Below, one piece after another: positions 3,632 to 29,704 of a DNA stretch of 51,770 bases (the stretch's first letter is position 1; each line of letters opens with the position of its first letter). The stretch is from Streptosporangiaceae bacterium (lineage in GTDB: Bacteria; Actinomycetota; Actinomycetes; Streptosporangiales; Streptosporangiaceae): assembly GCA_036273575.1 (NCBI GenBank), contig DASUHI010000123.1, positions 1-51,770 on the forward strand. Direction: 5' to 3'. A model generated the notes under the pieces. The model was not told the origin of the DNA. It saw only the letters and a list, made by a program, of their open reading frames with translations, and searched no databases. The position numbers and the translations under genes were made by a program.

Positions 3632-3720
3632 ATCGCCATGAATATGCCCGTTTGTTGCCGTCTAGGCCACGCCACCCCTGCTCGTTGTCCCTTTCCCGCC
3701 GACGTGGTACAACAGGCCGA

Positions 3721-4791: not shown

Positions 4792-4819
4792 CGGTGCAGG
4801 GCGGAAAGGGCAGGCTGAC

Positions 4820-6043: not shown

Positions 6044-6053
6044 CGGGGCGGGG

Positions 6054-7801: not shown

Positions 7802-7805
7802 CGCC

Positions 7806-8900: not shown

Positions 8901-8916
8901 CAGGACGAGGACGATC

Positions 8917-9882: not shown

Positions 9883-9913
9883 GTCACCAGCGCCTCATGC
9901 CGAGTCAAACAGG

Positions 9914-10606: not shown

Positions 10607-10652
10607 CGGTGCTCATCCTGCCATCGCCGGGGCGGGCGGGCAGCGGGACGGG

Positions 10653-11819
10653 TCACTCGCTGGTCTGCGACCGCGCCATTCCCGCGTCCCATTTCGCCTC
10701 GATCTGGCCGAACCGCCAGATCGCGAGCGCGACGACCCAGGTGACCACGAACACGCCGACGATGACGTACCCGGCCTTGTTGAGGTCGAACGCGGCCATG
10801 AAGCGCCAGAAGTAACCGGTGAGATGGGCCTGCTGCCCGATCAGCCCGAGGATCTCGACGCTGCCGATGAAGAAGGCCACGAAGACCGACAATCCCGTGA
10901 TCGTCAGGTTGTAGTAGACCTTGCGCACCGGGCGCGCGAAGGCCCAGTCGTAGGCGAAGTTCATGAAGCAGCCGTCGGCGGTGTCGAACAGGCTCATCCC
11001 GGCCGCGAACAAAAAGGGCAGCGAGAGCAACGCGTAGAACGGCAGCCCGCTGATCACCGCGGTGCCCGCCAGCACGAGGAAGGCGACTTCGGTCGCGGTG
11101 TCGAATCCCAGCCCGAACAGCAGGCCGATCGGGTACATCTTCCACGGCGCGTCCACGCGCTTGTTGAGCGGCCCGAGCAGCCTGTTCATCAGGCCCCGCT
11201 TGGCCAGTTGCTCCTCGAGCTCGGCGTCGCTGAATCTGCCGGAACGCATCTCGCGGAAGACCTTGATGATGCCGATCAGGATGACCACGTTCAGGGCGGC
11301 GATCAGGTACAAGAACGTGCCGGAGACCGACGTCCCGACCACGCCGGTGACCCCGTGCAGCGTCGAGTTCTTGTTGTGCACCTGGCTGTTGAGCGCACGG
11401 ATGCCGAAGTTCAGCAAGATGGCGAGGATGAACACGACCGATGAGTGACCGAGCGAGAAGAAGAAGCCGACCGACAACGGACGCTTGCCGTCGCCGACCA
11501 GCTTGCGGGTCGTGTTGTCGATGGCGGCGATGTGGTCGGCGTCGAACGCGTGCCGCATGCCGAGGGTGTAGGCGAGCACTCCGGTCCCGACGCCGAACGC
11601 CTTCCCGGCGCTCACCTGGTAGTTCCCGTTGACCACGGCGAGCGTGAGCAGGCCCCAGCCGACCACGTGCAGCCCGATCACCGCCGCGACCATGGCGCCA
11701 ACGCGGCGCCACTCCGCGGGCGTCAGCGCGGCCCTGATCCGGGCCAGACGGCTGGAAGCGGTGCCGCCCGCGGGGGACGACCCCCCGGAACCCCCCGCGC
11801 TCTGCGCTATGGACGTCAT
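10653..11819 (-). CDS. HoxN/HupN/NixA (NiCoT) family nickel/cobalt transporter
   Basis: The signature RHAFDADHIAAIDNTTRKL and LGFDTATEV are present, with 8 TM segments. The start is set to ATG 11819 (MTSIAQS). The listed TTG at 11858 would put the Nur-box-like site inside the CDS. Confidence 0.9.
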   Translation of the reverse strand: MTSIAQSAGGSGGSSPAGGTASSRLARIRAALTPAEWRRVGAMVAAVIGLHVVGWGLLTLAVVNGNYQVSAGKAFGVGTGVLAYTLGMRHAFDADHIAAIDNTTRKLVGDGKRPLSVGFFFSLGHSSVVFILAILLNFGIRALNSQVHNKNSTLHGVTGVVGTSVSGTFLYLIAALNVVILIGIIKVFREMRSGRFSDAELEEQLAKRGLMNRLLGPLNKRVDAPWKMYPIGLLFGLGFDTATEVAFLVLAGTAVISGLPFYALLSLPFLFAAGMSLFDTADGCFMNFAYDWAFARPVRKVYYNLTITGLSVFVAFFIGSVEILGLIGQQAHLTGYFWRFMAAFDLNKAGYVIVGVFVVTWVVALAIWRFGQIEAKWDAGMARSQTSE

Positions 11820-11838
11820 GCGCGCCACCCTAAGGTAG

Positions 11839-11855
11839 CTGCAAATTACTTGCAA
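11839..11855. promoter_or_regulatory. Nur-box-like operator CTGCAA-N5-TTGCAA
   Basis: The sequence ctgcaa attac ttgcaa lies 20-36 nt upstream of the NiCoT ATG. It matches the published Streptomyces Nur (Ni-Fur) 6-5-6 consensus tTGCaa-N5-ttGCAA. Confidence 0.55.
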
Positions 11856-11944
11856 CAACGGGATGCAGGCAGGCGCGAGGCGATGGCGGAGCGTGCTGAG
11901 TTACGATCGGCTGGCGAACGCTCCAACGGAGGAGGCAGTCCGAC

Positions 11945-14017: not shown

Positions 14018-14045
14018 CCCGCGCGCGCGTCCCTGGCAGCGCGAA

Positions 14046-14792
14046 TCAGCGGAGGTAGGAGGCGCCGTTGAGGTCGAGGACGGCGCCGCTTGCCCACTCG
14101 GCCTTGGGTGAGGCCAGGTACACGACGGCGGCGGCGATTTCCTCGGGCTCCGCGACGCGGCCGAACGGGCTCTGCGCCCTGATCTCGTCGCCGCGCGGCG
14201 GCTTCAGGTGCTCGTTGGTCATGTCGGTGGCCACGAAGCCGGGCGCCACCGACATCACGGCGATGCCGTGCGGCGCGAGCGCCCGGGCCAGGGACTGGCC
14301 GAGCGAGTTCAGGCCGGCTTTGCTCGCCCCGTACGCGGGCGAGTGCGGCTCGCCGCGATACGCCCCCCGCGACGAGACGTTGATGATCCGGCCGCCGCGG
14401 CCCTTCATGTGCTGGACGGCGCACCACGCGGCGTTCGCCGCGCCGATCAGGTTGACCGCGAGCGTTGCCCGCCACTGGTCCTGCCACTGCTCGTAGGACA
14501 CGTCGGTGATCGGGTGCGGCGTGAACACACCTGCGTTGTTGACCAGGACGTCCAGGCCGCCGAGCACGCTGGCCGCGCGGTCCACCATCGCGCGCACGGC
14601 GTCGGGGTCGGCGAGGTCCGCCTGGACGACAGCGTGCCCGCTGCCGGACAGGTCCGCGACGAGACGGTCGGCGAGTCCCGCCGAGTCGCGGTGGTGCACG
14701 GCCACCCGGTCGCCGGCCGCGGCGAACTCGGCCGCGATGGCCCTGCCGATCCCCCGCGAACCCCCGGTGATCAGTACGGCGCGCCCGCTCAT
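14046..14792 (-). CDS. SDR family oxidoreductase (FabG-like)
   Basis: Motifs present: TGGSRGIG (TGxxxGxG), NNAG, and the catalytic YGASK (YxxxK). Confidence 0.9.
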   Translation of the reverse strand: MSGRAVLITGGSRGIGRAIAAEFAAAGDRVAVHHRDSAGLADRLVADLSGSGHAVVQADLADPDAVRAMVDRAASVLGGLDVLVNNAGVFTPHPITDVSYEQWQDQWRATLAVNLIGAANAAWCAVQHMKGRGGRIINVSSRGAYRGEPHSPAYGASKAGLNSLGQSLARALAPHGIAVMSVAPGFVATDMTNEHLKPPRGDEIRAQSPFGRVAEPEEIAAAVVYLASPKAEWASGAVLDLNGASYLR

Positions 14793-16659: not shown

Positions 16660-17745
16660 ATGACAGCAAAGGGCACATCAGCGCGTAACACGCCGCTGAA
16701 GTCCGATCAGCCAGTCACGCTCAAAGACGTGGCCGCACTGGCCGGAGTTCACCCTGCGACGGCGTCGCGGGCGCTCAACGCCGAGACCAGGCTGCTGGTG
16801 CGCCGCGAGACCGCCGACCGGGTCATGGCCGCTGCCGACTCGCTCGGCTACCGGCCGAACACGGTGGCCCGCAGCCTGCGCACGCGCCGTTCGCACACCG
16901 TGGGCGTGCTGATCCCGGATCTGACCAACCCGCTGTTCCCGCCGATTGTCCGCGGCATCGAGGATCGCCTCGCCGCCGAGGGCTACGTCGCGCTCATCGG
17001 CAACACCGACTCCGACCTGGACCGCGAGCGGCTGGTGTTCGAGCGGATGCGCGCGAGGCACGTGGACGGCTTCGTCTGCGCGACCGCGCACCTCCGCAGC
17101 CCGGTGCTGGCCGACGCGGCCGAAGCGGGGATGCCCGTGGTGCTGGTGAACCGGCATGCCGAGGGGTACGGCATGCACTGCGTGTCGGTGGACAACGAGC
17201 GCGGCATCGCGATGGCGGTCGAGCACCTGGCCGGGCTCGGTCACCGCAGGATCGCGCACATCGCCGGCCCGCAGGACGTATCGACGGGCCTCAGCCGGTA
17301 CCAGGGCTTCGTCGCCGCGATGGCCGCGCACGGCCTGACCGTCGATCCCGCCCTGGTCACCTACGCCCGTGCCTACTCCCTGGAGGAGGGCGACCGGTGC
17401 GGTCGAGAACTCACCGCGGCCGGGTCGGGTTGCACGGCGATCGCGGCCGCCAACGACATGCTGGCCGTCGGCTGCTATGCGGCGCTCGAGGCCGCCGGCC
17501 TGTCCTGCCCGCGGGACATCTCCGTGGTCGGGTTCAACGACATGCCGTTCATCGACCGGCTGCGGCCGCCGCTCACGTCGGTGAGCTTCCCGCACTATCA
17601 GGTCGGAGCCGAGGCCGGGCGGCTGATCCTTGAGCAGATCGCGGCGAGCGCAGAGGACCGCCCGTCCCCTGGTGAGCCTGGCAAGGTCCTGTACCTCGCG
17701 CCTGAGCTGAAGGTCAGGGGCTCGACGGCCCCGCCTGCGGAATAG
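16660..17745 (+). CDS. LacI family transcriptional regulator
   Basis: The N-terminal HTH is VTLKDVAALAGVHPATASRALN. The rest is a periplasmic-binding-protein-like effector domain. Confidence 0.9.
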   Translation: MTAKGTSARNTPLKSDQPVTLKDVAALAGVHPATASRALNAETRLLVRRETADRVMAAADSLGYRPNTVARSLRTRRSHTVGVLIPDLTNPLFPPIVRGIEDRLAAEGYVALIGNTDSDLDRERLVFERMRARHVDGFVCATAHLRSPVLADAAEAGMPVVLVNRHAEGYGMHCVSVDNERGIAMAVEHLAGLGHRRIAHIAGPQDVSTGLSRYQGFVAAMAAHGLTVDPALVTYARAYSLEEGDRCGRELTAAGSGCTAIAAANDMLAVGCYAALEAAGLSCPRDISVVGFNDMPFIDRLRPPLTSVSFPHYQVGAEAGRLILEQIAASAEDRPSPGEPGKVLYLAPELKVRGSTAPPAE

Positions 17746-18829
17746 GAATCAGCCGGCTGGCCATCCAGTCAGCCGTGAAGGGGCGGTGCTGGTACACCAC
17801 GTTCGCGCAGCCGTGGTTGCCGTCCTCCAGCAGCAGCAGCTCGGCGTGCGGGCCGACCTCCGCGGCGAGCCGGTCCGCATCCTGCCACGGGAAGATCCGG
17901 TCGCGCTTCCCCGCGACGATCAGGATCGGCGCGCGGATCTGGCCCGCCCGTCCCGCCATGGTCAGCTCGGCGGCCCGCTGCCTGGCCTGCTCAGCGGACC
18001 GCGACTTCGAGCGCACCGTGAAGGCGGCGCGGCTCAGGTCAGGCAGCCGCTCCCAGATGTCACCGAGGCAGTACACAGGGCAGAGCGAGATGGCCGCCCT
18101 GACCCGCTCGTCGCCGCTCGCGACGCGCGCCGAGTAGTAACCGCCGAGGCTCACGCCCCAGATTCCGATCCGCGCCGCGTCGATCCCGGGCAGCCTCGCC
18201 ACGGCGTCCACGATCGCCCGTCCAGGGACCTCCCAGTCCGGCCTGATCGCCAGGTCGTACTCGGCCTCGCCCTGGCCTGGCCCGTCGACCGACACCGTCG
18301 CCATCCCGCGGCTCAGGAACAGATCCTCTGTGGGCCTGAACTCCTCCTTGGCAGAGTCGAGGCCGGGGATCAGGATCACGGCCGGGTGCGGGCCAGCCCC
18401 CGGCGGGCGCCTGACCACCGCGGCGATCGCCGCACCGGCGAACGGTATCTCGACCCGCTCGCCTGGCGGGTCGAGAAAAGCGAGCGCGTCGCCCGCGCTC
18501 CTGACCGCCATCAGATGGGCGGCCCGCATCTGATCGAAGTCGTTCACGAACATGAACTTCGCGAAGTGGTAGTAGACCGCCGCCTGGGACAGGTGCGTGC
18601 CCGCCGAGCGGTGCCGCCCGGCCGCGAGCGCGTCCCTGCCGAGCTTCTCGTGCACCGCTCCGGCCACGCACCACTGCTCGCACCAGGCGCCCCAGCTCTG
18701 GATCGCGGCGGTGACGCGGACGAAGTCGTTGTAGTCGACGCCATTGGCGATAAAGCGCGGCGCCCAGTGGCTCACCGCGGCGGCCACGCGGCTATCGGTC
18801 ATGTACGTCAGCATTGCACACGTTTGCAT
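17714..18829 (-). CDS. Alpha/beta hydrolase (FrsA / 2,6-dihydropseudooxynicotine-hydrolase-like)
   Basis: The nucleophile elbow is GVSLGG, and the N-terminal helical cap resembles DHPON-hydrolase-type enzymes. The start is set to ATG 18829, which has a GGAGGG SD 9 nt upstream. Alternatives are 18814 and 18802. The listed 18928 start lies in the promoter region. Confidence 0.7.
   Translation of the reverse strand: MQTCAMLTYMTDSRVAAAVSHWAPRFIANGVDYNDFVRVTAAIQSWGAWCEQWCVAGAVHEKLGRDALAAGRHRSAGTHLSQAAVYYHFAKFMFVNDFDQMRAAHLMAVRSAGDALAFLDPPGERVEIPFAGAAIAAVVRRPPGAGPHPAVILIPGLDSAKEEFRPTEDLFLSRGMATVSVDGPGQGEAEYDLAIRPDWEVPGRAIVDAVARLPGIDAARIGIWGVSLGGYYSARVASGDERVRAAISLCPVYCLGDIWERLPDLSRAAFTVRSKSRSAEQARQRAAELTMAGRAGQIRAPILIVAGKRDRIFPWQDADRLAAEVGPHAELLLLEDGNHGCANVVYQHRPFTADWMASRLIPIPQAGPSSP
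18815..18828. promoter_or_regulatory. LacI-type operator O3, TGCACACGTTTGCA
   Basis: This 14-bp palindrome has one mismatch. It overlaps the first codons of the hydrolase gene. Confidence 0.5.
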
Positions 18830-18923: not shown

Positions 18924-18937
18924 AGCAAACGGTTGCG
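18924..18937. promoter_or_regulatory. LacI-type operator O1, AGCAAACGGTTGCG
   Basis: The core GCAAAC|GGTTGC is a near-palindrome around a central CG. It lies in the divergent intergenic region next to the LacI gene cluster. Confidence 0.5.
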
Positions 18938-18963: not shown

Positions 18964-18977
18964 TGCAAACGATTGCT
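18964..18977. promoter_or_regulatory. LacI-type operator O2, TGCAAACGATTGCT
   Basis: The core GCAAAC|GATTGC is a near-palindrome. Its centre is 40 bp from the centre of O1, and it lies 23 nt upstream of the dehydrogenase ATG. Confidence 0.5.
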
Positions 18978-18999: not shown

Positions 19000-19947
19000 A
19001 TGGGCGGTCCGGATGACGGGCAGAGGCTGGGCTGGCTGGGCACCGGGCGGATGGGCGTCGCGCTCGTGCACCGGTTGCTGCGCGCCGGGCGCGACGTCAC
19101 GGTCTACAACCGGACCAGGGCCAAGGCCGAGCCCCTCGCAGACGCGGGGGCGAGGATCGCGGACCACGCGGCAGAGCTCGGATCCGCGGACATCGTGTTC
19201 GTGATGGTCGGCACGTCCCAAGACCTGATCGACGCGGTGACCGGGCCGGCCGGGCTGATCTCCGGCGGCCGTGCTCCCTCGGTCGTCGTCGACTGCTCGA
19301 CGGTCTCGCCGGAGGCGTCCGAGCAGGTCAGGACCGTACTAGCGGGACACGGCTGCGCGCTGCTCGCCGCTCCGGTGATGGGCAATCCCAAGGTTGCCGA
19401 GGTCGGCAAGCTGACCTTCGCCGTCTCCGGATCGCGCGCGGCCTTCGAGCTGGCACGCCCCTACCTTGACCTGCTCGGCGCTGGCGCCACCTACGTCGGC
19501 GACGGTGAGCTGGCCAGGATCGTCAAGCTCTGCCACAACCTGTTTCTCGGCGTTGTCACGCAGTCGCTCGCCGAGGTCACCGTGCTCGCCGAGAAGAGCG
19601 GCATCACCAGGCAGGCGCTCCTCGCCTGCATCAACGACAGCGTCATGGGCTCGACGTTCAGCAGGTACAAGACGCCGGCCTTCGTGAACCTCGACTTCCA
19701 CCCGACCTTCACCGCGTCGCTGCTGCGCAAGGACTTCGACCTTGGGCTGGCGGCGGCGAGGGAGCGCGAGGTGCCGATGCCGGTCGCGTCGGCAGTGCAT
19801 CAGCTCGTGCAAGCCCTGGTCGGCAACGGATTCGGCGAGGACGACTTCGCCTCCTTGGTGGTGCTCCAGGCCAGGTCCGCCGGCCTGGAGCTGATCAGCG
19901 AGGACGCGGAGGTATCTGACGGGCTCGAACCCGCCAGCAGCGATTGA
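19000..19947 (+). CDS. NAD(P)-dependent oxidoreductase, 3-hydroxyisobutyrate/6-phosphogluconate dehydrogenase-like
   Basis: The start is trimmed to ATG 19000. The Rossmann motif is LGWLGTGRMGVALVHRLL, followed by a C-terminal all-helical domain as in the HIBADH family. Confidence 0.8.
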   Translation: MGGPDDGQRLGWLGTGRMGVALVHRLLRAGRDVTVYNRTRAKAEPLADAGARIADHAAELGSADIVFVMVGTSQDLIDAVTGPAGLISGGRAPSVVVDCSTVSPEASEQVRTVLAGHGCALLAAPVMGNPKVAEVGKLTFAVSGSRAAFELARPYLDLLGAGATYVGDGELARIVKLCHNLFLGVVTQSLAEVTVLAEKSGITRQALLACINDSVMGSTFSRYKTPAFVNLDFHPTFTASLLRKDFDLGLAAAREREVPMPVASAVHQLVQALVGNGFGEDDFASLVVLQARSAGLELISEDAEVSDGLEPASSD

Positions 19948-19985
19948 TCGGGTTACTACCCCTCAACTCGGAAGGAGGACCGGGG

Positions 19986-21248
19986 ATGAGCTCTTACCGC
20001 GCCCGGTTCTTGACCCTCGGTATGTCAGCGGCCATCGTCTCGGCCATGCTCGCGGCCTGCTCAAGCGGCGGCGGAGGCGGGACAAGCCCGCCGCCCTCGT
20101 CCAGCAAGCCCATCCTCATCGGCGCCTCGCTGTCGCTGACCGGCGACTTCTCCGCGGACGGCAAGGCCTTCCTGCGGGGCTACAAGCTCTGGGTTCATGA
20201 CGTCAACGCGTCCGGCGGCCTGCTCGGGCGCAAGGTCAAGCTCATCTACCTGAACGACCGCAGCGACACCGGCCAGGTGGTCACCAACTACACGACGTTG
20301 ATCTCTACCGACCATGTGGACCTGACGTTCGGGCCGTTTTCCTCGCTGCTGACGACACCTGCCTCAGCGGTCGCGGCGCGGAACGGCAAGGCGTTCATCG
20401 AGGGCGCGGGCGGCGCGCCGAGCGTGTTCACGGCGCCGGCCAACCAGCAGGCGCACAACGTGTTCGACGTCAGCCTGCCGATCGCCGACGAGATGGTGCC
20501 GTTCGCGAAATGGATCGCGTCGCTGCCGGCCAGCCAGCGCCCGAAGACGGCCGCCTACCCGATGGCCAACGACCCGTTCGCCGACCCCCCGGTCCAGTTG
20601 ACCCAGTCGATGCTGAGCAAGGCCGGCATCAAGACGGTGTACTCGCACATCTTCCCTGCCGAGGTGCCCGACTACGCGCCGGCCGCTGACAACGTGGCCG
20701 CCACGCACGCCGACGTCGTCGTGCTCGGCTCGACCGACGTGCCGACCGTCAACGCGTTCGTCAAGGCGTTCCAGCAGCAGCACTACACCCCGAAGATCTT
20801 CATCGCCGCGGCGGGCCCTGACCAGGGCGCGTCCTTTACCTCCGCGGTGGGGGTCGGGAATGCCAGCGGGATCATGGTGCCCAATGCCTGGTATGGCGGT
20901 TCGCCGAACCCGGAGAGCCAGAAGATGGTGTCCGAGTACATCAAGATCTACCACGGCACGCCGTCCGACATAAACGCCGACGTCGCCGAGGCCTACTCGG
21001 TCGGCCAGGTGGCCCAGCAGGCCGTCGAGCACCTCAAGAGCCTCGACAACGCCAAGATCATTTCTTACCTGCACAGCGGGGTCACGCTGCAAACCGTGCA
21101 GGGACCCGTGAAGTTCGACTCGCTCGGCCGCAACGGGGCGGCGACGACCTTCATCTTCCAGTGGCAGAACGGCAAGTTCGTCCAGGTCCTCCCGCTCGGG
21201 TCGGCTGGCTCTGTGCCGATCCTGAACCCGAAGCCGGCCTGGAAGTAA
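19986..21248 (+). CDS. ABC substrate-binding lipoprotein, LivJ/HAAT (type-1 PBP) family
   Basis: ATG 19986 follows the SD GGAAGGAGG. The lipobox is MLAAC with a Gly/Ser/Pro linker. The sequence ILIGASLSLTGDFSADGKA is typical of Leu/Ile/Val-binding-protein-family receptors. Confidence 0.8.
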   Translation: MSSYRARFLTLGMSAAIVSAMLAACSSGGGGGTSPPPSSSKPILIGASLSLTGDFSADGKAFLRGYKLWVHDVNASGGLLGRKVKLIYLNDRSDTGQVVTNYTTLISTDHVDLTFGPFSSLLTTPASAVAARNGKAFIEGAGGAPSVFTAPANQQAHNVFDVSLPIADEMVPFAKWIASLPASQRPKTAAYPMANDPFADPPVQLTQSMLSKAGIKTVYSHIFPAEVPDYAPAADNVAATHADVVVLGSTDVPTVNAFVKAFQQQHYTPKIFIAAAGPDQGASFTSAVGVGNASGIMVPNAWYGGSPNPESQKMVSEYIKIYHGTPSDINADVAEAYSVGQVAQQAVEHLKSLDNAKIISYLHSGVTLQTVQGPVKFDSLGRNGAATTFIFQWQNGKFVQVLPLGSAGSVPILNPKPAWK

Positions 21249-21299
21249 GGCCGGGACGAGGCATGCTTGTGCACGGAGCAGCGCACAGCGGAGAAGGCG

Positions 21300-22181
21300 A
21301 TGGGCACTGAACTTGCCCGCGCCGTGATCGACGGCATCCTGGGCGGCGGCATCTACGCGCTGATGGCCGTCGGGCTGACGTTGATCTTCGGCGTGCTGGA
21401 CATCATCAACATCGCCCAGGGCGTGATGGTGGTGCTCGGCGCCTACCTCAGCTATGCGCTCTCCGTGCACCTGCACCTGGATCTGTTCCTCGGGCTGCTG
21501 ATCACCGTTCCCGCGATGTTCGTGATCGGCGTGATCATCCAGGTCGCCTTCATCAGGCCTCTGCACGGCAGCGAGCGGACGTCGATGTCGCTGCTGGCCA
21601 GCTACGCGGTGGCGATCGTCATCGAGGGCGTGTTGTACCTGTTCTTCGGGCCGAACTTCGTGACGCTCACCGCCTCGTACGCGACGAACAGCTTCGCCCT
21701 CCTCGGTTTCCGCTTGCCCCTCATCGACCTGTACGGATTCGCCATGGCGGTGGTGCTGGTCGCGGCGCTGTACCTGCTGCTGTACAGGTCCAGGTTCGGC
21801 CGCAGCGTCCGCGCCACGATGCAGGACAGGACCGCCGCCATGCTGATCGGCGTCGACGTGAACAGGGTCGCGGCGCTGACCTACGGCATCGGCGTCGCGG
21901 TCACCGCGGTCGGCGGGATGATCTTCGGCGCCAGCGGCGGCGGCTTCAACCCGAACAGCGGGTACGACCTGATCTCGCGGCTGCTCGCGATCATCATCCT
22001 GGCCGGGCTGGGCAGCATCGGCGGGGCGCTGGTCGCCTCCGTGTTCATGCTCACGCTCGAGTCGATCGTGGACATCTGGCAGCCGAACTGGTCGGTGGCG
22101 GTGTTCTACGCCGCGCTCGTGATCGTGCTCCTGGTGCGGCCCAGCGGCCTGTTCGGCCGCCAGGCGGCGAGGGCCCAATGA
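21300..22181 (+). CDS. Branched-chain-amino-acid-type ABC permease (LivH-like)
   Basis: ATG 21300 follows GAGAAGG. The protein is polytopic and the GGIYALMAVGLTLIFGVLDIINIAQG signature is present. Confidence 0.85.
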   Translation: MGTELARAVIDGILGGGIYALMAVGLTLIFGVLDIINIAQGVMVVLGAYLSYALSVHLHLDLFLGLLITVPAMFVIGVIIQVAFIRPLHGSERTSMSLLASYAVAIVIEGVLYLFFGPNFVTLTASYATNSFALLGFRLPLIDLYGFAMAVVLVAALYLLLYRSRFGRSVRATMQDRTAAMLIGVDVNRVAALTYGIGVAVTAVGGMIFGASGGGFNPNSGYDLISRLLAIIILAGLGSIGGALVASVFMLTLESIVDIWQPNWSVAVFYAALVIVLLVRPSGLFGRQAARAQ

Positions 22182-22191
22182 AGGCGGCACA

Positions 22192-23229
22192 ATGAAGGCC
22201 GTACCCGCAGGCAAAGCGGGACGCGGTGGCTTCGGCGTCGTCGTCCTGGCCGTGGCCGTGATCTTTCCGCTCGCCTTCACGAACCAGTCAGTGAACTCGG
22301 TCGCGTTCCAGACGCTGATCTTCGTCTGCGCCGCGTCTGCATGGAATCTGTTCTCGGGCTTCTCTGGCTACATCGCGCTCGGTCACGCCGTCTTCTTCGG
22401 CAGCGGCGCCTACGCGGCTGGACTCGCCGCGGAGCACTGGCACATCACCGGCGGGGCGGAGTTCGCGCTGCTGCCGTTCGGCGCGGCCGCCGCCGCCGTG
22501 ATCGCCGTCCCGTTCGGCCTGATCGCGCTCCGGGTCAGGCGGCACACCTTCGTCGTCATCACGATCGCGATCTTCTTCATCTTCCAGCTGTCCGCCGCTG
22601 ACCTGAACAGCATCACGAACGGCACGAGCGGGCTGAACGCGCCGTTCCTGCTCTGGGACCCGGTCACGTTCGACCAGCGCTTCTACTACATCGCGCTGGC
22701 CCTCGCGTTGCTCACGATCGCACTGGCCTGGTTGATCAAGGGGTCGCGGTTCGGCCTGCAACTCCGCGCGATCAGGGACGACGAGGACCGGGCTGCCAGC
22801 CTCGGCGTGCGCGCGATGCCCGTCAAGCTCACCGCCTTCGCGATCTCGGGCGCGCTCACCGGTGCCGCGGGGGTGCTGTGGTTCTTCTTCATCGACCAAG
22901 TGCAGCCCGCGACCGGGTACGACCCGCTGTTCGACCTCACCATCGCCCTGATGGCGTTCCTCGGCGGGCTAGGGACGATCAGTGGCCCCGTGCTCGGCGC
23001 GCTGATCATCGAGCCCGCGCAGCAGTACCTCACGATCACGGTCAGCAACAGCTACCTCAGCCAGATCCTGCTGGGCGCGCTATTCCTCGCGGTCGTGCTC
23101 TTCGTGCCGCGCGGGCTCATCCCAACCGTGGCTGACAAGGGCAAGGACTGGCTGGAGCGGCGCCGGTCGCTGCGGCAGGGAGGTGACGTCGGCGTCGACG
23201 TGCCGGCATCCGCCAGGGAGCCAGCATGA
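22192..23229 (+). CDS. Branched-chain-amino-acid-type ABC permease (LivM-like)
   Basis: The protein is polytopic, with GYIALGHAVFFGSGAY and LRAIRDDEDRAASLG motifs. Confidence 0.85.
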   Translation: MKAVPAGKAGRGGFGVVVLAVAVIFPLAFTNQSVNSVAFQTLIFVCAASAWNLFSGFSGYIALGHAVFFGSGAYAAGLAAEHWHITGGAEFALLPFGAAAAAVIAVPFGLIALRVRRHTFVVITIAIFFIFQLSAADLNSITNGTSGLNAPFLLWDPVTFDQRFYYIALALALLTIALAWLIKGSRFGLQLRAIRDDEDRAASLGVRAMPVKLTAFAISGALTGAAGVLWFFFIDQVQPATGYDPLFDLTIALMAFLGGLGTISGPVLGALIIEPAQQYLTITVSNSYLSQILLGALFLAVVLFVPRGLIPTVADKGKDWLERRRSLRQGGDVGVDVPASAREPA

Positions 23230-24002
23230 CCGCCCTGCTGCAGACCGAGGGCATCTGCAAGGCTTTCGGCGGCGTCCAGGCGCTGGAGGACTGCACCATC
23301 GAGGTGTCCGCCGGATCGATTACCGGGCTGATCGGGCCCAACGGGTCGGGCAAGACAACGCTGTTCAACGTGATCACCGGGTACGACCGGCCCGACGCCG
23401 GCGAGGTCTGGTACGCGGGCGCGAAGATCACGGGCTCATCTCCGCAGCGCGTGTTCGCCTCGGGCATCGGCAGGACGTTCCAGCTGACGAGGATCTTCCC
23501 CCGTCTGACGGTGCTGGAGAACATGATCGTTGCCGCCCAGCACACCGACACCGGTGCGCGGCGGGTACGGAATCCGTTCGCGAGGGCAGGCGGTCCGGCC
23601 GACCGCCAGCGGGCGATGGAGCTCCTCGAGTTCACCGGCATCGCCGGGCACGCGGGCAAGCTCGCCGGAACGCTGTCCTACGGCCAGCGCAAGCTGCTCG
23701 AGCTGTCCTACGTTCTCGTGGCCGACCCGGCGATCGTGCTACTCGACGAGCCGGCCGGCGGGGTGAACCCCACGCTGGTCGGCCAGCTGGCGCAGCGGAT
23801 CAGTGACCTGAACGCAGCCGGCAAGACGTTCCTGATCGTCGAGCACAACATGGAATTCGTGATGGGCCTGTGTCATCACGTCGCCGTGCTCGACTACGGA
23901 ACGGTTGTGGCGGCCGGGCCGCCCGCCGTGATCAGAAACGACCCGCGCGTGCTCGATGCCTACCTCGGCCTGGCGGAGGACGACGATGAGCCAGCCGGAT
24001 AG
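23226..24002 (+). CDS. ABC ATP-binding protein (LivG-like)
   Basis: The start overlaps the LivM stop (ATGA). Motifs present: Walker A GPNGSGKTT, signature LSYGQRKLLEL, Walker B LLDEPAGG. Confidence 0.9.
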   Translation: MTALLQTEGICKAFGGVQALEDCTIEVSAGSITGLIGPNGSGKTTLFNVITGYDRPDAGEVWYAGAKITGSSPQRVFASGIGRTFQLTRIFPRLTVLENMIVAAQHTDTGARRVRNPFARAGGPADRQRAMELLEFTGIAGHAGKLAGTLSYGQRKLLELSYVLVADPAIVLLDEPAGGVNPTLVGQLAQRISDLNAAGKTFLIVEHNMEFVMGLCHHVAVLDYGTVVAAGPPAVIRNDPRVLDAYLGLAEDDDEPAG

Positions 24003-24747
24003 GGCAGCCCTGGTCATCGACGGGCTCACCGCGGGATACGGCGGCGGCGACGTGCTCCACGACGTCAGCCTCACCGTGCCGGAGGGCGGCATCACGTGCG
24101 TCGTCGGGCCGAACGGCTGCGGCAAGTCCACGCTGCTCGCCACCATCAGCGGGCTGCTGCGGCCGCGGCGCGGTGCCATCGCCTTCCGCGGTCGGCAGCT
24201 CGTCGGCCGGACGCCGCGTCAGGTTCTGGGCGCGGGGATCGTGCACGTACCGCAGAACCACAGCCTGTTCCGCGAGATGACGGTCGCGGAGAACATCGAG
24301 CTCGGCGGGTACCTGCTGGCCGACCGGCGGCGAATCGCGAGCAGGCGGGCCGCGGTCGAGGACATGTTCCCCGCGGTGGCGGGCTGGGCGAGCCAGAAGG
24401 CCGGCAGCCTGTCGGGCGGCCAGCAGCGGCTGGTGGAGTTCGCCAGGTGCCTGATGCTTGACCCGGCGCTGGTCATACTCGACGAGCCGTCCGTGGGCCT
24501 GGCGCCGAAGGTGCTCAAGACGGTCTTCGACGCCGTCAGGATGATGAACTCAAACGGCAAGACCATCTTGCTTGTTGAACAGAACGCGCGCGCTGGCCTG
24601 GCACTGTCGAGCCACGGCGTCGTGATGGAGAACGGCCGCATCCGGCTCTCCGGCACCGGCAGGGAGGTGCTCGAGCACCCCGAAATCGGCGCGTTGTACC
24701 TGGGCGGTAGCGTGCGTCCCGACGCCGAGCCTGAAGCGCCGCGATGA
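23986..24747 (+). CDS. ABC ATP-binding protein (LivF-like)
   Basis: ATG 23986 overlaps the LivG end. Motifs present: Walker A GPNGCGKST, signature LSGGQQRLVEF, Walker B ILDEPSVGL. Confidence 0.9.
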   Translation: MSQPDRAALVIDGLTAGYGGGDVLHDVSLTVPEGGITCVVGPNGCGKSTLLATISGLLRPRRGAIAFRGRQLVGRTPRQVLGAGIVHVPQNHSLFREMTVAENIELGGYLLADRRRIASRRAAVEDMFPAVAGWASQKAGSLSGGQQRLVEFARCLMLDPALVILDEPSVGLAPKVLKTVFDAVRMMNSNGKTILLVEQNARAGLALSSHGVVMENGRIRLSGTGREVLEHPEIGALYLGGSVRPDAEPEAPR

Positions 24748-26306
24748 CGAAGGCTTTCGACGTGGTCGTCGCGGGGGCTGGTCACAACAGCCTTGTCGCG
24801 GCCGCCTACCTAGCCAGGGCCGGGCTGTCCTGCCTGGTGCTCGAGGCCCGTCACGACATCGGCGGGGACACGAGCTCGGAGGAGCTGACCCTGCCGGGCT
24901 TCGTGCACGACTCGTGCTCGACCGCGCACAACCTGATCCAGGCGAGCCCGGTTCTCGACGAGCTCGGCCTGGCCGGGCACGGCCTTGAGTACCTGCATCC
25001 CGATCCTGTCGCGCACCTGCCGTTCCCCGACGGATCGTGGCTGACGATGTGGCGGGACGAGGAGCGGACCTGCGCAGAGTTCGCGAAGTTCGCCGCCGCG
25101 GACGGGGCGGCCTACCGCGCGATGATGGCGGACTACCGCGAGATCGCGCCGGACCTCAGGCGCGCCAGGTACACCCCGCTGGGTTTCGGCGAGACGGCCC
25201 GCGGCGCGCTCGCCCGCCAGCCGGCTGGTTCACGCTGGCTCCGCCGCGACGCCATGTCGGCGTGGGAGGTCATCGCCGCCGCCTTCGCCGACGAGCACAC
25301 CAGGGCGTTCATGCTGTGGATGTCCTTCATGACCATGCAGCCGCCGGAGCGGCCAGGAACCGGACTGCTTGCCTACTCGCTGGCCTTCGGCAGGCAGCGG
25401 CACAGCTGGACGCTGCCGCGCGGCGGATCGGCAGCCCTGCCGAGGGCACTGGCCAGCGTGATCGAGGGTCATGGCGGCGCGATCGTGACGGGCGCGCGAG
25501 TCACCAGCCTGGTGATGCAGCGCGGCAGGTGCGCGGGCGTCGAGACCGAGCAGGGTGAGAAGTACCTGGCGGGCAGCGCGGTGCTGTCCACGATCCATGT
25601 CAAGCACCTGGTCGAGATGGCGCCAGCGCCGGCGTGGGGCGAGGACTTCAGGTACGGCGTAGACACCTGGCAGCCCGGCGTTTCGATGTTCGTCACCCAC
25701 TACGCGACGACCGAGCCGCCCCGGTTCGCCGTCGGCGACGGTCACCTCGCCGCCGTCGCGTCGGGCACGCCCCAGTCAGCGGAGCGGATGCTACGGCTCG
25801 GCACAGACTTCCGGGCAGGACGTATCGCGGTCGACGACCCCGTCCTGCTCGTGCTGTGCCCGACGGTCGCCGACCCGTCGCGGGCGCCGGAGGGCAGGCA
25901 CACGCTCAAGGTCGTCGGCTTCCAGCCCTACGAGCTACCGGCCGGGCCGTGGCGCTGGGATGAACTCAAGGACGGCGTCTCCCGAGCGAATCTGGCCGAA
26001 CTGCGCAGGTACGCGCCCAATGTGACCGACGACGTCATCCTCGCGTCCTCCGTGAAGAGCCCGCTCGACCTGGAGCGCATGAACGCGCACAACTGGCATG
26101 GCTCCTGCCACGGCGGCGACGCAGGCCCGGCGCAGTCCGGCGAGCTGCGTCCGGTGCCCGGCTGGGCGAGCCACCGGATGCCGATTCCCGGGCTCTACCA
26201 GACCGGCGCCACCACCCATCCTGGCGGCTCGGTGAGCGGCGCTCCCGGACGGAACGCGGCCACGGTCATACTGGCGGATCTAGGCAGATCGATGACTGGC
26301 GGGTGA
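24744..26306 (+). CDS. FAD/NAD(P)-dependent oxidoreductase, phytoene-desaturase (CrtI/COG1233)-like
   Basis: The start overlaps the LivF stop (ATGA). The dinucleotide-binding motif is DVVVAGAGHNSLVAAAYLARAGLSCLVLEARHDIGG, and the C-terminal GATTHPGGSVSG motif is present. Confidence 0.75.
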   Translation: MTKAFDVVVAGAGHNSLVAAAYLARAGLSCLVLEARHDIGGDTSSEELTLPGFVHDSCSTAHNLIQASPVLDELGLAGHGLEYLHPDPVAHLPFPDGSWLTMWRDEERTCAEFAKFAAADGAAYRAMMADYREIAPDLRRARYTPLGFGETARGALARQPAGSRWLRRDAMSAWEVIAAAFADEHTRAFMLWMSFMTMQPPERPGTGLLAYSLAFGRQRHSWTLPRGGSAALPRALASVIEGHGGAIVTGARVTSLVMQRGRCAGVETEQGEKYLAGSAVLSTIHVKHLVEMAPAPAWGEDFRYGVDTWQPGVSMFVTHYATTEPPRFAVGDGHLAAVASGTPQSAERMLRLGTDFRAGRIAVDDPVLLVLCPTVADPSRAPEGRHTLKVVGFQPYELPAGPWRWDELKDGVSRANLAELRRYAPNVTDDVILASSVKSPLDLERMNAHNWHGSCHGGDAGPAQSGELRPVPGWASHRMPIPGLYQTGATTHPGGSVSGAPGRNAATVILADLGRSMTGG

Positions 26307-27679
26307 GGGACATGGCGATACGCACGTTCGGGACGACCGCGGTCGACTGGGAGCAGCGGGTGGACTTCGACCGGCTCCGCACCGCCCGGCTCGCCAGGCT
26401 GAAGGAGCACCTGGAGCGGTCTGAGCTCGGGGCGCTGCTGAGCTTCGACATGGCCAACACCAGGTACATGACCGCCACGCACATCGGCACCTGGGCCATG
26501 GACAAGCTGATCAGGTTCGCGTTGCTGCCACGCGGCGGCGAGCCGGTCGTGTGGGACTTCGGATCGGCGGCCAGGCACCACCAGCTGTACAACCCGTGGC
26601 TTGACCACACGCCTGGGGAGCCGACCGCGGCCGGCGCGGCCAGGACAGGCGCGCGGGCCGGCATCTCCACGCTGCGCGGCGCGTTCCACCCGGACGCGGG
26701 GATCGCGACGGAGCTGGCCAGAACCGTCGCCGCTGAGCTGCGTGAACTGGGCCTGGCCAGCGAGCCCGTGGGTGTCGACGTCGCGGAGATGCCGGTGCTG
26801 GCCGCCCTCGCTGCCGAGGGCATCAGGGCGGTCGACGGGCAGCAGGTGTTCCTCGAGGCGCGCAGGATCAAGACCGCCGATGAGATCACACTGCTCACCC
26901 ACGCCTGCTCGATGGTCGACGCCGCCTACGACGAGCTATACGCGTTCCTGCGCCCGGGAGTGCGCGAAAACGAGTGCGTCGGGCTCGTCAGCAAGGTGCT
27001 CTACGACCTGGGCAGCGAATACGTGGAGGGCGTCAACGCGATCTCTGGCGAGCGCTGCTCGCCGCACCCGCACGTGTTCAGCGACCGGATCCTGCGGCCC
27101 GGAGACCCCGCGTTCTTCGACATCTTGCACAGCTTCAACGGCTACCGGACCTGCTACTACCGCACGCTCGCGGTCGGCAGCGCGTCAAGGGCGCAGCGCG
27201 ACGCGTACGTCAGGTGCCGTGAATACATGGACGCGGCGATCGCGATGGTCAAGCCTGGGGCGACCACCGGCGAGATCGTGGCGCTGTGGCCGCGCGCGGA
27301 GGAGTTCGGATTTCCCGACGAGACAGCCGCGTTCGCGCTGCAGTACGGGCACGGGGTCGGCCTGTCGATCTGGGAGAAGCCGATCTTCAGCAGGCTCGTG
27401 TCGCTCGACCACCCTGAACCGCTGGAGGAGGGCATGGTGTTCGCGCTCGAGACGTACTGGCCCGCGGCCGACGGCTGGTCGGCGGCCCGGATTGAGGAGG
27501 AGGTCGTGGTGACGGCCGACGGCTGCCAGGTGATCACGAAGTTCCCCGCCGAGGACCTGCTCGTGGCGGGCCGGAAGTACTGGACCGTGGGCGGCGCGCT
27601 CGACACGCTCCGCGAGAGCCAGTCACATTTGAACACTGCTGCAGGTAGAGGCGAGATGATCCCTGGGCAGGCGACATGA
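26303..27679 (+). CDS. M24-family pita-bread-fold hydrolase (creatinase / Xaa-Pro peptidase / ectoine-hydrolase-like)
   Basis: The start overlaps the upstream stop (GTGA), with an alternative ATG at 26312. It has a creatinase-like N-domain and C-domain motifs FFD...GYRTCYYRT, HGVGLSIWE, ALETYW and RIEEEVVVT. Confidence 0.8.
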   Translation: MRDMAIRTFGTTAVDWEQRVDFDRLRTARLARLKEHLERSELGALLSFDMANTRYMTATHIGTWAMDKLIRFALLPRGGEPVVWDFGSAARHHQLYNPWLDHTPGEPTAAGAARTGARAGISTLRGAFHPDAGIATELARTVAAELRELGLASEPVGVDVAEMPVLAALAAEGIRAVDGQQVFLEARRIKTADEITLLTHACSMVDAAYDELYAFLRPGVRENECVGLVSKVLYDLGSEYVEGVNAISGERCSPHPHVFSDRILRPGDPAFFDILHSFNGYRTCYYRTLAVGSASRAQRDAYVRCREYMDAAIAMVKPGATTGEIVALWPRAEEFGFPDETAAFALQYGHGVGLSIWEKPIFSRLVSLDHPEPLEEGMVFALETYWPAADGWSAARIEEEVVVTADGCQVITKFPAEDLLVAGRKYWTVGGALDTLRESQSHLNTAAGRGEMIPGQAT

Positions 27680-28671
27680 CGACGCCGACGAGCATGGACG
27701 CCGACCGGCTGCTCGCGCTGTACGAGCAGATGGCGGTCATCAGGCGGACCGAGAAGGCCGCGCATGACCTGTTCCTCGCTGGCCTGGTCAAGGGCACCAC
27801 GCACCTGGCCGCCGGACACGAGGCGGTCGCTGTCGGCGCGAGCGCGAGCCTGCGTCCCGACGATTATGTGTTCGCGACCTACCGCGGGCACCATCACGCT
27901 ATCGCCCGCGGCGCCAGCCCAGAAGAATGCCTGGCCGAGCTGATGAGCAAGGCCACGGGGGTGTGCAAGGCCAAGGGCGGGTCGATGCACCTGACCAAGG
28001 CGACCGCCGGGATGCTCGGCTCCTATGCCATCGTCGGCGCGCACCTGCCGCTCGCGGCCGGCGCCGCGTGGTCGGCCAAGCTCAGGGGTTCCAGCCAGGT
28101 CGCCGTCGCGTTCTTCGGTGACGGCGCGACCAACATCGGGGCGTTCCACGAGGCGCTCAACATCGCGTCGGTGTGGTCCCTTCCCGTGCTGTTCATCTGC
28201 GAGAACAACCTCTACATGGAGTACACGCCGATCGGCTCGGTCACCGCGGTGCCGAACCCGGCCGCCGACCGGGCGCCCGCCTACGCGATGCCCGCCGAGG
28301 TGATCGACGGCAACGACGTCGTCGTGGTTGCCGACGCCGTCGCCCGCGCCGCCGAGCGGGCCAGGTCGGGCCAGGGCCCCACGGTGATCGAGGCGCGGAC
28401 GTACCGCCACTTCGGCCACAGCCGCACCGACCCCGCGACGTACCGTCCGCCGGAAGAGCTGCAGGAATGGCTGGAACGGGACCCGCTGGACATCGCCAGG
28501 GCCAGGCTGGCCGAACTCGGCGTGCCCGTCGAGCGGGCGATCGAGGCCGACGACCGCGCGGCCGGGCTGGTCGAGGCCGCGGTGGCGGCGGCGCGTGCCG
28601 CGCCACCGCCCGACCCGGCCGACGCATTCACCGATGTCTGGGCGGACGGAGGCTCGCAATGGCGGACGTGA
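27676..28671 (+). CDS. Thiamine-diphosphate-dependent 2-oxoacid/acetoin dehydrogenase E1 alpha subunit
   Basis: The start overlaps the M24 stop (ATGA). The TPP-binding motif is FFGDGATNIGAFHEALNIASVWSLPVLFICENNLY. Confidence 0.9.
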   Translation: MTTPTSMDADRLLALYEQMAVIRRTEKAAHDLFLAGLVKGTTHLAAGHEAVAVGASASLRPDDYVFATYRGHHHAIARGASPEECLAELMSKATGVCKAKGGSMHLTKATAGMLGSYAIVGAHLPLAAGAAWSAKLRGSSQVAVAFFGDGATNIGAFHEALNIASVWSLPVLFICENNLYMEYTPIGSVTAVPNPAADRAPAYAMPAEVIDGNDVVVVADAVARAAERARSGQGPTVIEARTYRHFGHSRTDPATYRPPEELQEWLERDPLDIARARLAELGVPVERAIEADDRAAGLVEAAVAAARAAPPPDPADAFTDVWADGGSQWRT

Positions 28672-29636
28672 CGTACCGGGAGGCCGTCGCCGAGGGGCTG
28701 GCCCGCGAGCTGCGGCGCGACCCAGCCGTGGTCTGCCTCGGCGAGGACATCGGCAAGGCCGGCGGCGTGTTCAAGACCACGCAGGGCCTATTCGAGGAGT
28801 TCGGGCCGGGCAGGATCTGGGACACGCCGATCTCCGAGCAGGCGATCCTCGGTCTCGCGATGGGCGCCGCGATGACCGGCATGCGGCCGGTCGCGGAGAT
28901 CATGTTCTCCGACTTCTTCGCCGTGTGCTGGGACTACCTGGCCAACGAGATACCGAAGATGCGGTACATGACCGGCGGGCAGGTCAGGATCCCGCTCGTG
29001 GTCCGCACCGCCAACGGCGGCGGCCTCGGGTTCGGCGCTCAGCACTCCCAGGCCGTGGAGAACTGGACGCTCACGATCCCGGGGCTGAAGATCGTGGCGC
29101 CGTCGAACCCGGCCGACGTCGTCGGCCTCATGGCCTCCGCGGTGCGCAGCGAGGACCCGGTGGTGTTCTTCGAGCACAAAGGCCTGTTCGCGAGCAAGGG
29201 CGAGGCCGCTCCCGAGGGTCACGTGATCCCCCTCGGCGAGGCGGCGATTGCCAGGCAGGGGACCGACGTCACCGTCGTGGCGCTGGCCGCGACCGTGCCG
29301 ATGGCGCTCACGGCCGCCGAGCGGCTGGCCGCCGACGGCGTCAGCGTGGAGGTCGTCGACCTGCGCTGCCTGGTGCCGCTGGACATGGCGACCGTGCTCG
29401 CGTCGGTCGCGAAGACCTCGCGGCTGCTGATCGTCGAGGAGAACCCGTACCAGGGCGGCTGGGGCGGCACGGTCGCGTCGATCGTTGCGGACGAGGGATT
29501 CGAGACGCTCGACGCGCCGGTGAAGCGCGTGGCCGCGGCCTGCGTCCCGCTCCCCTTCGCCGACGCCCTCGAACAGCAAGTGATCCCGACCGCCGACTCC
29601 CTCACCTCCGCCCTCCGGACCCTCGCCGCCTACTGA
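28659..29636 (+). CDS. 2-oxoacid/acetoin dehydrogenase E1 beta subunit
   Basis: The start is trimmed to ATG 28659 (MADVTYREAVAEGLARELRRDP), a 13-nt overlap with E1 alpha. The pattern CLGEDIGKAGGVFKTTQGL and the transketolase-C-like domain are classical E1 beta features. Confidence 0.9.
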   Translation: MADVTYREAVAEGLARELRRDPAVVCLGEDIGKAGGVFKTTQGLFEEFGPGRIWDTPISEQAILGLAMGAAMTGMRPVAEIMFSDFFAVCWDYLANEIPKMRYMTGGQVRIPLVVRTANGGGLGFGAQHSQAVENWTLTIPGLKIVAPSNPADVVGLMASAVRSEDPVVFFEHKGLFASKGEAAPEGHVIPLGEAAIARQGTDVTVVALAATVPMALTAAERLAADGVSVEVVDLRCLVPLDMATVLASVAKTSRLLIVEENPYQGGWGGTVASIVADEGFETLDAPVKRVAAACVPLPFADALEQQVIPTADSLTSALRTLAAY

Positions 29637-29652: not shown

Positions 29653-29704
29653 ACAACGGGGGCGCCCTGTTGTCGTTCTAACGACAACAGGGCGCCCCCG
29701 TTGT
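29653..29704. terminator. Perfect 25-bp inverted repeat (2-nt centre), candidate factor-independent terminator/insulator
   Basis: ACAACGGGGGCGCCCTGTTGTCGTT (29653-29677), then ct, then AACGACAACAGGGCGCCCCCGTTGT (29680-29704). It begins 17 nt after the E1 beta stop and has no U-tract. Confidence 0.6.

Follow-up and report, generated by a model that had tools for sequence, protein, structure and literature searches.

The region between positions 19000 and 29636 of a 51.8-kb stretch of DNA from a Streptosporangiaceae bacterium (ca. 70% G+C; the whole stretch, 51,770 nt long, is referred to here as the window) is a predicted repressor-controlled catabolic operon of ten genes, all on the forward strand. 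Since its parts are found separately in relatives, the operon is a fusion of two modules able to occur apart. Module A comprises a C-C hydrolase, a dehydrogenase resembling 3-hydroxyisobutyrate dehydrogenase (HIBADH), a Liv-type importer and a CrtI-like flavoenzyme, with an Amidohydro_2 protein added in relatives, and module B comprises a protein of the M24 family and the alpha and beta subunits of a thiamine pyrophosphate (TPP)-dependent E1 component. We read the region, with a probability of about one half, as a LacI-repressed operon of an uncultured Streptosporangiaceae-like actinomycete in which module A imports and remodels a nitrogen-containing acid and module B carries out its terminal cleavage. 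In this scheme, whose substrate, step chemistry and step order we infer, module A would import a small organic acid that contains nitrogen, whether amino-acid-like, an amide or cyclic (a cyclic or amide-type acid is our best inference), and would remodel it by dehydrogenation and C-C or C-N cleavage. Module B would then serve as a widely shared terminal unit: the M24 protein would not be a peptidase; by hydrolysis of a C-N bond, or by elimination, in a small anionic intermediate, it would expose a 2-oxo or alpha-hydroxyketone group, and the TPP-dependent E1 would cleave this group oxidatively, handing the acyl moiety to a lipoyl-E2 encoded elsewhere in the genome.

The M24 protein and E1 form a tightly linked pair. 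A scan of one genome per species rendered 80 loci containing the M24 gene, in Streptosporangiaceae metagenome-assembled genomes (MAGs), many Streptomyces, Micrococcales, Nocardioides, Acidimicrobiia, Chloroflexi, Dormibacteria, Deltaproteobacteria and a spirochaete; the closest relative of the window's M24 protein (96% identity) is found in an uncultured Actinomycetota MAG, followed by those of Streptosporangiaceae MAGs. Gene content was counted in the 62 species-representative loci whose flanks extend for 6 kb or more on either side. E1 genes are present in 49 of these and directly adjacent to the M24 gene in 39: E1 alpha immediately follows M24 in 32 loci, and E1 beta immediately precedes it in 7. 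A HIBADH-like gene was found in 34 of the 62 loci, a helix-turn-helix (HTH)-cupin regulator in 42, an Amidohydro_1 gene of the PRK08204 type in 39, a bicupin in 32, an E2 with a lipoyl domain in 14, a Liv binding protein of the window type in nine and a CrtI-like gene in three. Genes for E2, Amidohydro_1, bicupin and HTH-cupin proteins are absent from the 51.8-kb window. The M24 protein is 66-71% identical to its counterparts in Chloroflexi, Deltaproteobacteria and Dormibacteria, and its neighbours E1 alpha and beta, the HIBADH-like protein and the substrate-binding protein of the importer are 36-48% identical to theirs.

The arrangement of these genes differs among lineages. In Streptomyces the typical order is regulator, M24, E1 alpha, E1 beta, amidohydrolase, bicupin, short-chain dehydrogenase/reductase (SDR) and, in some cases, HIBADH, and in Chloroflexi it is HIBADH, E1 alpha, E1 beta, M24, E2, Liv, Amidohydro_2 and hydrolase, while in one Dormibacteria genome the LacI, hydrolase and HIBADH-Liv genes lie on the strand opposite to an adjacent E1-M24-E2 group. 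A reverse scan of metagenomes with the CrtI-like protein as query showed that the full cluster of the window type is common in soil contigs, and that the set of hydrolase, HIBADH, Liv, Amidohydro_2 and CrtI-like genes also occurs without M24-E1 (related loci L127-L134). The module A set recurs at 45-65% identity in two further loci (L150 and L156), where a 65%-identical CrtI-like gene accompanies Liv, hydrolase and HIBADH-like genes. The cluster, which the first-pass annotation had treated as one operon, is in this sense a joining of two separable modules and not one indivisible set. In two ENA contigs whose M24 proteins are 97% identical to that of the window (L002 and L003), LivG/F, E1 alpha, E1 beta and HIBADH are split or truncated, although the window and L005 have intact copies; frameshifts from assembly are a more likely cause than real pseudogenes.

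The M24 gene (26312, or GTG 26303, to 27679, + strand) encodes a Peptidase_M24 protein (PF00557, 134 bits, cut-off 23) with an altered metal site. Its ligand set is D270-C281-H347-E380-E395, in which the second metal-binding Asp of canonical M24 enzymes is replaced by Cys281 (motif GYRTCYYRT), at the canonical spacing of 11 residues from the first Asp. This Cys is invariant in 85 out of 85 orthologues and is present in 43 out of 48 full-length representatives of the wider family. The protein has the domain but not the complete Asp, Asp, His, Glu, Glu ligand set of methionine aminopeptidase, aminopeptidase P and prolidase. Its best solved relative is DddP, the dimethylsulfoniopropionate (DMSP) lyase, to which it aligns over the full length, N-terminal domain included (profile E 2.9e-45). 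The residues described as invariant in DddP are the metal ligands D295, D297, D307, H371, E406 and E421, plus Tyr366 and Asp377 (PMC4108388). Against structures 4S00 and 4S01, the window's protein has D, L, C, H, E and E at the ligand positions, and Ala and Ile at those of Y366 and D377. Judged by these residues and scores, it is neither a canonical metallopeptidase nor a DddP lyase, and its description as an M24 hydrolase, right about the fold, was too simple: the site carries an Asp-to-Cys change, and the closest relative is an enzyme whose catalytic residues it does not keep. DddP identity was discarded on a score of 101.7 bits against an NCBIfam cut-off of 600 and on the changes D297 to L, D307 to C, Y366 to A and D377 to I.

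A DddP-type pathway, in which the M24 protein would form acrylate by cleaving DMSP or a similar 3-substituted propionate, with 3-hydroxypropionate or malonate semialdehyde left to the HIBADH-like enzyme, has in its favour that DddP is the best relative over the full length, both among solved structures and among NCBIfam models, and that a pairing of HIBADH with aldehyde dehydrogenase resembles late acrylate catabolism. The score just given, the loss of four invariant residues, the soil origin of the organisms and the absence of any role for E1 in such a pathway all speak against it, and we regard it as very improbable.

The M24 protein is the most conserved member of the cluster, being 66-96% identical across the 80 species genomes. 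In comparison with Chloroflexi it retains 66% identity, against 48% for E1 alpha, 46% for E1 beta, 36% for HIBADH and 41% for the binding protein. So unusually strong a constraint points to numerous interaction surfaces or to an exacting active site. A structure prediction from a shallow alignment (at least 83% identity) gave an unusable model, with a mean predicted local distance difference test score (pLDDT) of 51.

The E1 subunits are encoded directly downstream. E1 alpha (27676 to 28671, + strand; 331 aa; E1_dh, 245 bits) has the TPP motif GDG...NN in its translation, and E1 beta (28659 to 29636, + strand; 325 aa) has the Transket_pyr and Transketolase_C domains, as expected of a heterotetrameric TPP-dependent E1. 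E1 beta scored 343 bits with PRK09212, over the cut-off of 321; E1 alpha scored 327.8 bits with the pyruvate dehydrogenase model PDH_E1_alph_y (TIGR03182), under the cut-off of 393.85, and among E1 alpha subunits it is nearer to that of pyruvate dehydrogenase (198 bits) than to the branched-chain one (116 bits). The E1 had been called an orphan, which describes the window, where no cognate E2 and E3 stand alongside, and not the family as a whole: relatives carry E2, E3 and aldehyde dehydrogenase beside M24-E1, so that E1 is orphan only in this lineage. A lipoyl-domain E2 follows M24 in Chloroflexi, Deltaproteobacteria, Dormibacteria and Spirochaetales, and E2 is also present on Phaeobacter and Paenarthrobacter plasmids. 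Where the M24-E1 set is complete, it is a complex of the acetoin/pyruvate dehydrogenase type with an aldehyde dehydrogenase. Thus, a Phaeobacter plasmid operon consists of SDR, M24 (55% identical), E1 alpha, E1 beta, lipoyl protein, aldehyde dehydrogenase, E2 and LpdA genes, upstream of which lie a ribose-type ABC transporter, a second SDR, a HIBADH-like gene and ThuA; acetoin reductase is the top-scoring model for both SDRs. By analogy, these partners in relatives point to a role of E1 in oxidative cleavage of the acetoin/pyruvate dehydrogenase type rather than as a stand-alone decarboxylase.

In module A, the alpha/beta hydrolase gene is divergent from the operon (17714 to 18814, with the start possibly at 18829, - strand). 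Its product, Pfam FrsA-like and with a nucleophile motif GVSLG (GxSxG) in the translation, matches 2,6-dihydroxypseudooxynicotine hydrolase (PDB 2JBW) over its full length (residues 14-363 of 366, E 1.9e-45), followed by the polyketide C-C hydrolases Ayg1 and AntI. Full-length homology and Ser nucleophile motif together support its prediction as a C-C hydrolase relative, in keeping with the C-C/ester hydrolase clade to which it had been assigned. The gene adjoins the module in Streptosporangiaceae, Dormibacteria (58%) and Chloroflexi (46%). The HIBADH-like gene (19000 to 19947, + strand) encodes an oxidoreductase of the beta-hydroxyacid dehydrogenase family with NAD_binding_2 and NAD_binding_11 domains. 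When aligned to 3W6U, 3CKY and 3DOJ, it retains the catalytic Lys/Asn (KLCHN) but has Met in place of the Ser/Thr of the PV[ST]GG substrate loop, which reads PVMGN, and its best equivalog score is 162 bits versus a cut-off of 341.

The importer is encoded by five genes on the + strand, for a lipoprotein substrate-binding protein (Peripla_BP_6; 19986 to 21248), a LivH/UrtB-like permease (21300 to 22181), a LivM/UrtC-like permease (22192 to 23229), both with BPD_transp_2 domains, a LivG-like ATPase (23226 to 24002) with Walker A GPNGSGKT in the translation, and a LivF-like ATPase recognised from its translation (23986 to 24747). This is the full composition of a Liv/HAAT importer, and the LivG orthologue in L003 has ABC_tran and BCA_ABC_TP_C domains. 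The binding protein has a lipobox, LAAC|S, in its translation and a GGAAGGAGGA ribosome-binding site 5' of ATG 19986. It is only distantly akin to solved binders of Leu/Ile/Val, amides and urea and scored 50 bits with the LivJ-type model, whose cut-off is 477, so that a specificity for Leu/Ile/Val is not supported by these comparisons. The CrtI/CrtO-like flavin adenine dinucleotide (FAD) oxidoreductase (24744 to 26306, + strand) has Amino_oxidase and NAD_binding_8 domains. It scored 258 bits with CrtO, where the cut-off is 1000, and 115 bits with crtI_fam TIGR02734, where it is 238; under both thresholds for the CrtI/phytoene desaturase family, it is confirmed only as a protein of the generic Amino_oxidase/FAD-binding fold. 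Its gene accompanies the HIBADH-Liv-hydrolase module with or without M24-E1. Its presence in only 3 of 62 species genomes had led us to consider a recent, lineage-specific insertion, an idea dropped when metagenomes showed a steady linkage to HIBADH-Liv-hydrolase even at 61-65% identity. In two contigs (L161, positions 1-14616, and L170), three tandem CrtI-like paralogues adjoin E1 beta, M24 and E2, together with a Na+/dicarboxylate symporter, a tandem SnoaL/DUF4440 protein, a multihaem cytochrome c7 and a molybdenum hydroxylase subunit.

With the family labels at hand, an ordinary use of peptides and branched-chain amino acids has to be weighed, in which Liv would import Leu/Ile/Val or dipeptides, the M24 protein would be a prolidase or aminopeptidase, E1 a branched-chain 2-oxoacid dehydrogenase and HIBADH the enzyme of valine catabolism. 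Annotation pipelines use these very names, HIBADH with E1/E2 recalls the valine pathway, and a few loci have an aldehyde dehydrogenase resembling methylmalonate semialdehyde dehydrogenase. The operon, however, has no transaminase, acyl-CoA dehydrogenase or hydratase; the E1 alpha and binding protein scores, the sub-threshold HIBADH score with its altered substrate loop, and an M24 protein without the second metal-binding Asp and with a DddP-like N-terminal domain are all at odds with these assignments. This reading, like that of a DddP pathway, is unlikely.

We place nitrogen in the substrate because of the Liv-type importer and the amide, amidine and imine enzymes that recur, in varying combinations, in related loci. 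The nitrogen-chemistry genes in question include deaminase-type Amidohydro_1, Amidohydro_2, amidase, RidA, molybdenum hydroxylase and a SadB-type flavin monooxygenase with flavin reductase; a creatininase-family gene was also recognised among related loci, by reading the translation alone.

Several points weigh against this scheme. The single transcription unit is itself a prediction from spacing and synteny. About one fifth of the M24 loci have no E1 within 10 kb, and many Microbacteriaceae M24 loci have, instead, ABC transporters of the sugar type, Zn-dehydrogenases resembling IolM and a TIM-barrel protein resembling EboE; because of these loci without E1 and with sugar-type transporters, the common intermediate could be a nitrogen-free polyol or sugar derivative. 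It could also be the case that the M24 protein acts after E1 rather than before it. The window holds neither E2 nor E3, and oxidative acyl transfer in this organism would be assumed by analogy with its relatives. LacI regulators mostly sense sugars or nucleosides. A search of the window and of seven related loci for riboswitches or other RNA elements hinting at the ligand gave nothing.

The main rival is a nitrogen-free route of the acetoin/2,3-butanediol type for a polyol, cyclitol or hydroxyketone, in which dehydrogenases would form an alpha-hydroxyketone, E1(E2E3) would convert it into acyl-CoA and aldehyde, and the M24 protein would act non-hydrolytically, as an isomerase, hydratase or lyase. 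Such a route would fit the Phaeobacter operon, with its two acetoin-reductase-like SDRs, full E1/E2/E3, aldehyde dehydrogenase, ribose-type ABC transporter and ThuA, as well as the Microbacteriaceae loci, the LacI-type regulator of the window and an E1 alpha/beta of the short pyruvate dehydrogenase/acetoin type. On the other hand, the importer in the window is of the Liv/HAAT type, whose solved relatives bind amino acids, amides or urea; enzymes for amides, amidines or imines are present in many related loci; and we know of no isomerase or hydratase activity in the M24 fold. On balance, we consider the route doubtful.

Some related loci deserve mention in their own right. In a Deltaproteobacteria MAG (L074, 2386-6617), four same-strand genes upstream of HIBADH, E1 alpha, E1 beta, M24 and E2 look, when their translations are read by eye, like those of a fumarate-reductase-like flavoprotein, a creatininase-family protein, a Gfo/Idh/MocA oxidoreductase and a small cupin. 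On a plasmid of Paenarthrobacter sp. R1 (L090; NZ_CP127116.1, 8229-18464), the genes sadB (WP_036299419.1) and sadC/sulR for sulfonamide degradation directly adjoin an M24 gene run composed of enoyl-CoA hydratase, HTH regulator, RidA, M24, HIBADH-like, SDR and LpdA genes. A 42-kb plasmid of P. ureafaciens SD-1 (L085/L087) carries genes for an 'oxidoreductase' of ca. 400 aa, an amidase, a Liv ABC transporter, RidA, M24, HIBADH, flavin reductase, a VOC protein, a fused E1 alpha/beta and E2; the 'oxidoreductase' may be a second SadB-like gene product. Published maps of sad clusters end at the yjgF/RidA gene, just before the M24 gene. It may be from a catabolic cluster of the M24 type that sadB and sadC were recruited. 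On pHV4 of Haloferax volcanii (L089, 526709-547932), a 33%-identical M24 homologue lies by the A and B subunits of a hydantoinase/oxoprolinase, with an ALS-type TPP-binding protein, an NAD(P)-dependent oxidoreductase, a cupin and EthD proteins, which makes another pairing of the M24 family with a TPP enzyme and cyclic-amide hydrolases.

Beyond the nitrogen-containing acid proposed for the window, a broader and tentative idea, to which we give clearly less credit, is that the Cys-variant M24 protein, with a metal site ligated by Cys, represents a catalytic type new to the pita-bread fold. It would be an obligate partner of an E1(E2E3) of the acetoin/pyruvate dehydrogenase type and, together with it, perform the terminal step of a widespread new route fed by different upstream modules, including that of the window and the apparent source module of sadB/sadC. 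This route would extend over Actinomycetota, Chloroflexota, Dormibacteria, Deltaproteobacteria, Spirochaetales and Roseobacteraceae, and distant relatives of the protein (ca. 33% identity) occur in haloarchaea.

As for the operon itself, start codons were chosen by ribosome-binding sites, conserved N-termini and orthologue lengths, and the layout follows from the open reading frames and inspection of those starts. The junctions are, in order, +38, +51, +10, -4 (ATGA), -17, -4 (ATGA), +5 or -4, -4 (ATGA) and -13 nt. The first-pass annotation had described a compact, same-strand unit of ten genes with upstream gaps of at most 51 nt and a start/stop overlap at every junction from 23226 on. The unit is borne out by layout and spacing, by the LacI gene and operators on its 5' side and by a strong hairpin on its 3' side; the first three gaps measure 38, 51 and 10 nt; and the overlaps hold except between the CrtI-like and M24 genes. 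The latter junction is -4 (GTGA) if GTG 26303 is used and +5 nt with ATG 26312. A 5-nt gap is more likely because orthologues are called as proteins of 455 aa from the equivalent of ATG 26312; in addition, the M24 genes of orthologues start about 10 nt past the preceding stop codon, and the purine-rich sequence upstream of ATG 26312 is better than that at GTG 26303. The same spacing pattern is seen in related contigs, and the 17-nt LivG/LivF overlap is also present in L003. Overlaps of 4 nt are found in other same-strand pairs of the window as well (e.g., 6968/6971 and 37486/37489); they are ordinary for high-GC actinobacterial operons, that is, real and not unusual. The family labels previously given to the genes agree with the Pfam domains, and in comparisons with Pfam and NCBIfam every enzyme, though rightly labelled, falls under its equivalog cut-off.

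Upstream of the operon, a LacI-family repressor gene (16660 to 17745, + strand) encodes a LacI HTH domain and Peripla_BP_1/3 sensor domains. The protein is under every NCBIfam equivalog cut-off, its best matches being CytR and RbsR (ca. 210 bits). The gene is found with the HIBADH-Liv module, at 61-86% identity, in L002-L005, L010, L012, L024 and L077, and also in L093 and L094. To our knowledge, the pairing of a LacI-type regulator with a Liv-type importer is unusual. The predicted operators have a 12-bp near-palindromic core, GCAAACGnTTGC. The motif GCAAACGNTTGC occurs exactly twice in the 51.8 kb, both times in the 186-nt divergent intergenic region (chance expectation, 0), as GCAAACGGTTGC at 18925-18936 and GCAAACGATTGC at 18965-18976, both unstranded, the second lying 24 nt 5' of the first start codon. 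It is also found upstream of the HIBADH-like gene in eight related loci. HTH domain, sugar-binding-protein-like domain and near-palindromes are those expected of a LacI/GalR repressor-operator pair, and the putative operators noticed earlier upstream of the operon are both conserved and the only matches in the window. The 3' ends of the LacI gene and of the convergent alpha/beta hydrolase gene overlap by 32 nt (17714-17745).

On the 3' side, a perfect 24-bp hairpin (29653 to 29704, + strand; -67.8 kcal/mol, z = -8.5) begins 17 nt past the last stop codon, and none of 200 shuffled sequences folds as well. It has a 4-nt loop and no T tract, and it is longer than a typical intrinsic terminator. 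The hairpin is likely a transcription terminator, and it could be a protein-binding or repeat element. Terminator-like matches within the genes are weak, with stems of 5-7 bp. A scan of the window for sigma-70 promoters rendered no match, with a consensus that is ill-suited to actinomycetes. The flanking genes, for a PP2C phosphatase, an SDR, a prolyl oligopeptidase, a NicO transporter, a beta-lactamase-like protein and an S9 peptidase, are unrelated to the operon. A separate operon at 3325-8900, encoding a TOBE-domain ABC ATPase, a binding protein of the SBP_bac_8 family, two permeases and a dioxygenase of the TauD/TfdA family, probably serves the scavenging of an organosulfonate or similar compound.

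Should the M24 protein and E1 work as a dedicated catalytic unit, they would define a catabolic route that pathway databases lack. It would be common in soil actinomycetes, many Streptomyces among them, and plasmids of marine Roseobacters and sulfonamide-degrading Paenarthrobacter would carry it as well. Replacement of a metal-binding Asp by an invariant Cys would bring new chemistry to the fold of peptidases, creatinase, ectoine hydrolase and DMSP lyase. Practical handles are the culturable hosts and two proteins that can be screened for a ligand, the soluble lipoprotein receptor and the LacI repressor with its defined operators.

That the enzyme set corresponds to no described pathway, as had been stated from the sequence, agrees with the literature searched (open-access texts), in which no paper assigning a function to the gene set was found, and with the database names of the homologues, which are generic only ('Xaa-Pro peptidase/M24 family' for the M24 protein). 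Among known systems, the AcoABCL and pyruvate dehydrogenase complexes share with module B the short E1 alpha and beta (331 and 325 aa), the TPP motif and a beta subunit over the PRK09212 cut-off, and in the window's relatives the operon also includes a lipoyl-E2, an E3, SDRs resembling acetoin reductase and an aldehyde dehydrogenase. In contrast to those complexes, the window is without E2/E3, its E1 alpha is under the pyruvate dehydrogenase equivalog cut-off, and an M24-fold gene is inserted beside E1, sometimes between E1 beta and E2; we know of no M24-fold gene in aco or pdh operons. DddP (PDB 4S00, 4B28) is the best full-length relative of the M24 protein, with equivalents of D295, H371, E406 and E421, but Leu, Cys, Ala and Ile occupy the positions of D297, D307, Y366 and D377, and the score is 102 bits versus 600. 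Creatinase and the ectoine hydrolase DoeA likewise have the pita-bread fold, act on small C-N compounds and belong to catabolic operons (profile E ca. 1e-21), but they are far more distant from the window's protein than DddP and have no link to a TPP enzyme, their partner genes being others.

The 2,6-dihydroxypseudooxynicotine hydrolase of the Arthrobacter nicotine pathway (2JBW) resembles the divergent hydrolase in full-length alignment and GxSxG motif, whereas no other gene of that pathway is present at the window locus. Liv/HAAT importers and LacI/PurR-type pairs have their counterparts in the five-component importer, in the HTH plus periplasmic-binding-protein-like sensor and in the near-palindromic operator, but all the window components are far under the equivalog cut-offs. 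The gene combination is found in none of these closest known systems, and the novelty of the region is that of a repressor-controlled catabolic operon of a known kind with a core enzyme pair not previously characterised.

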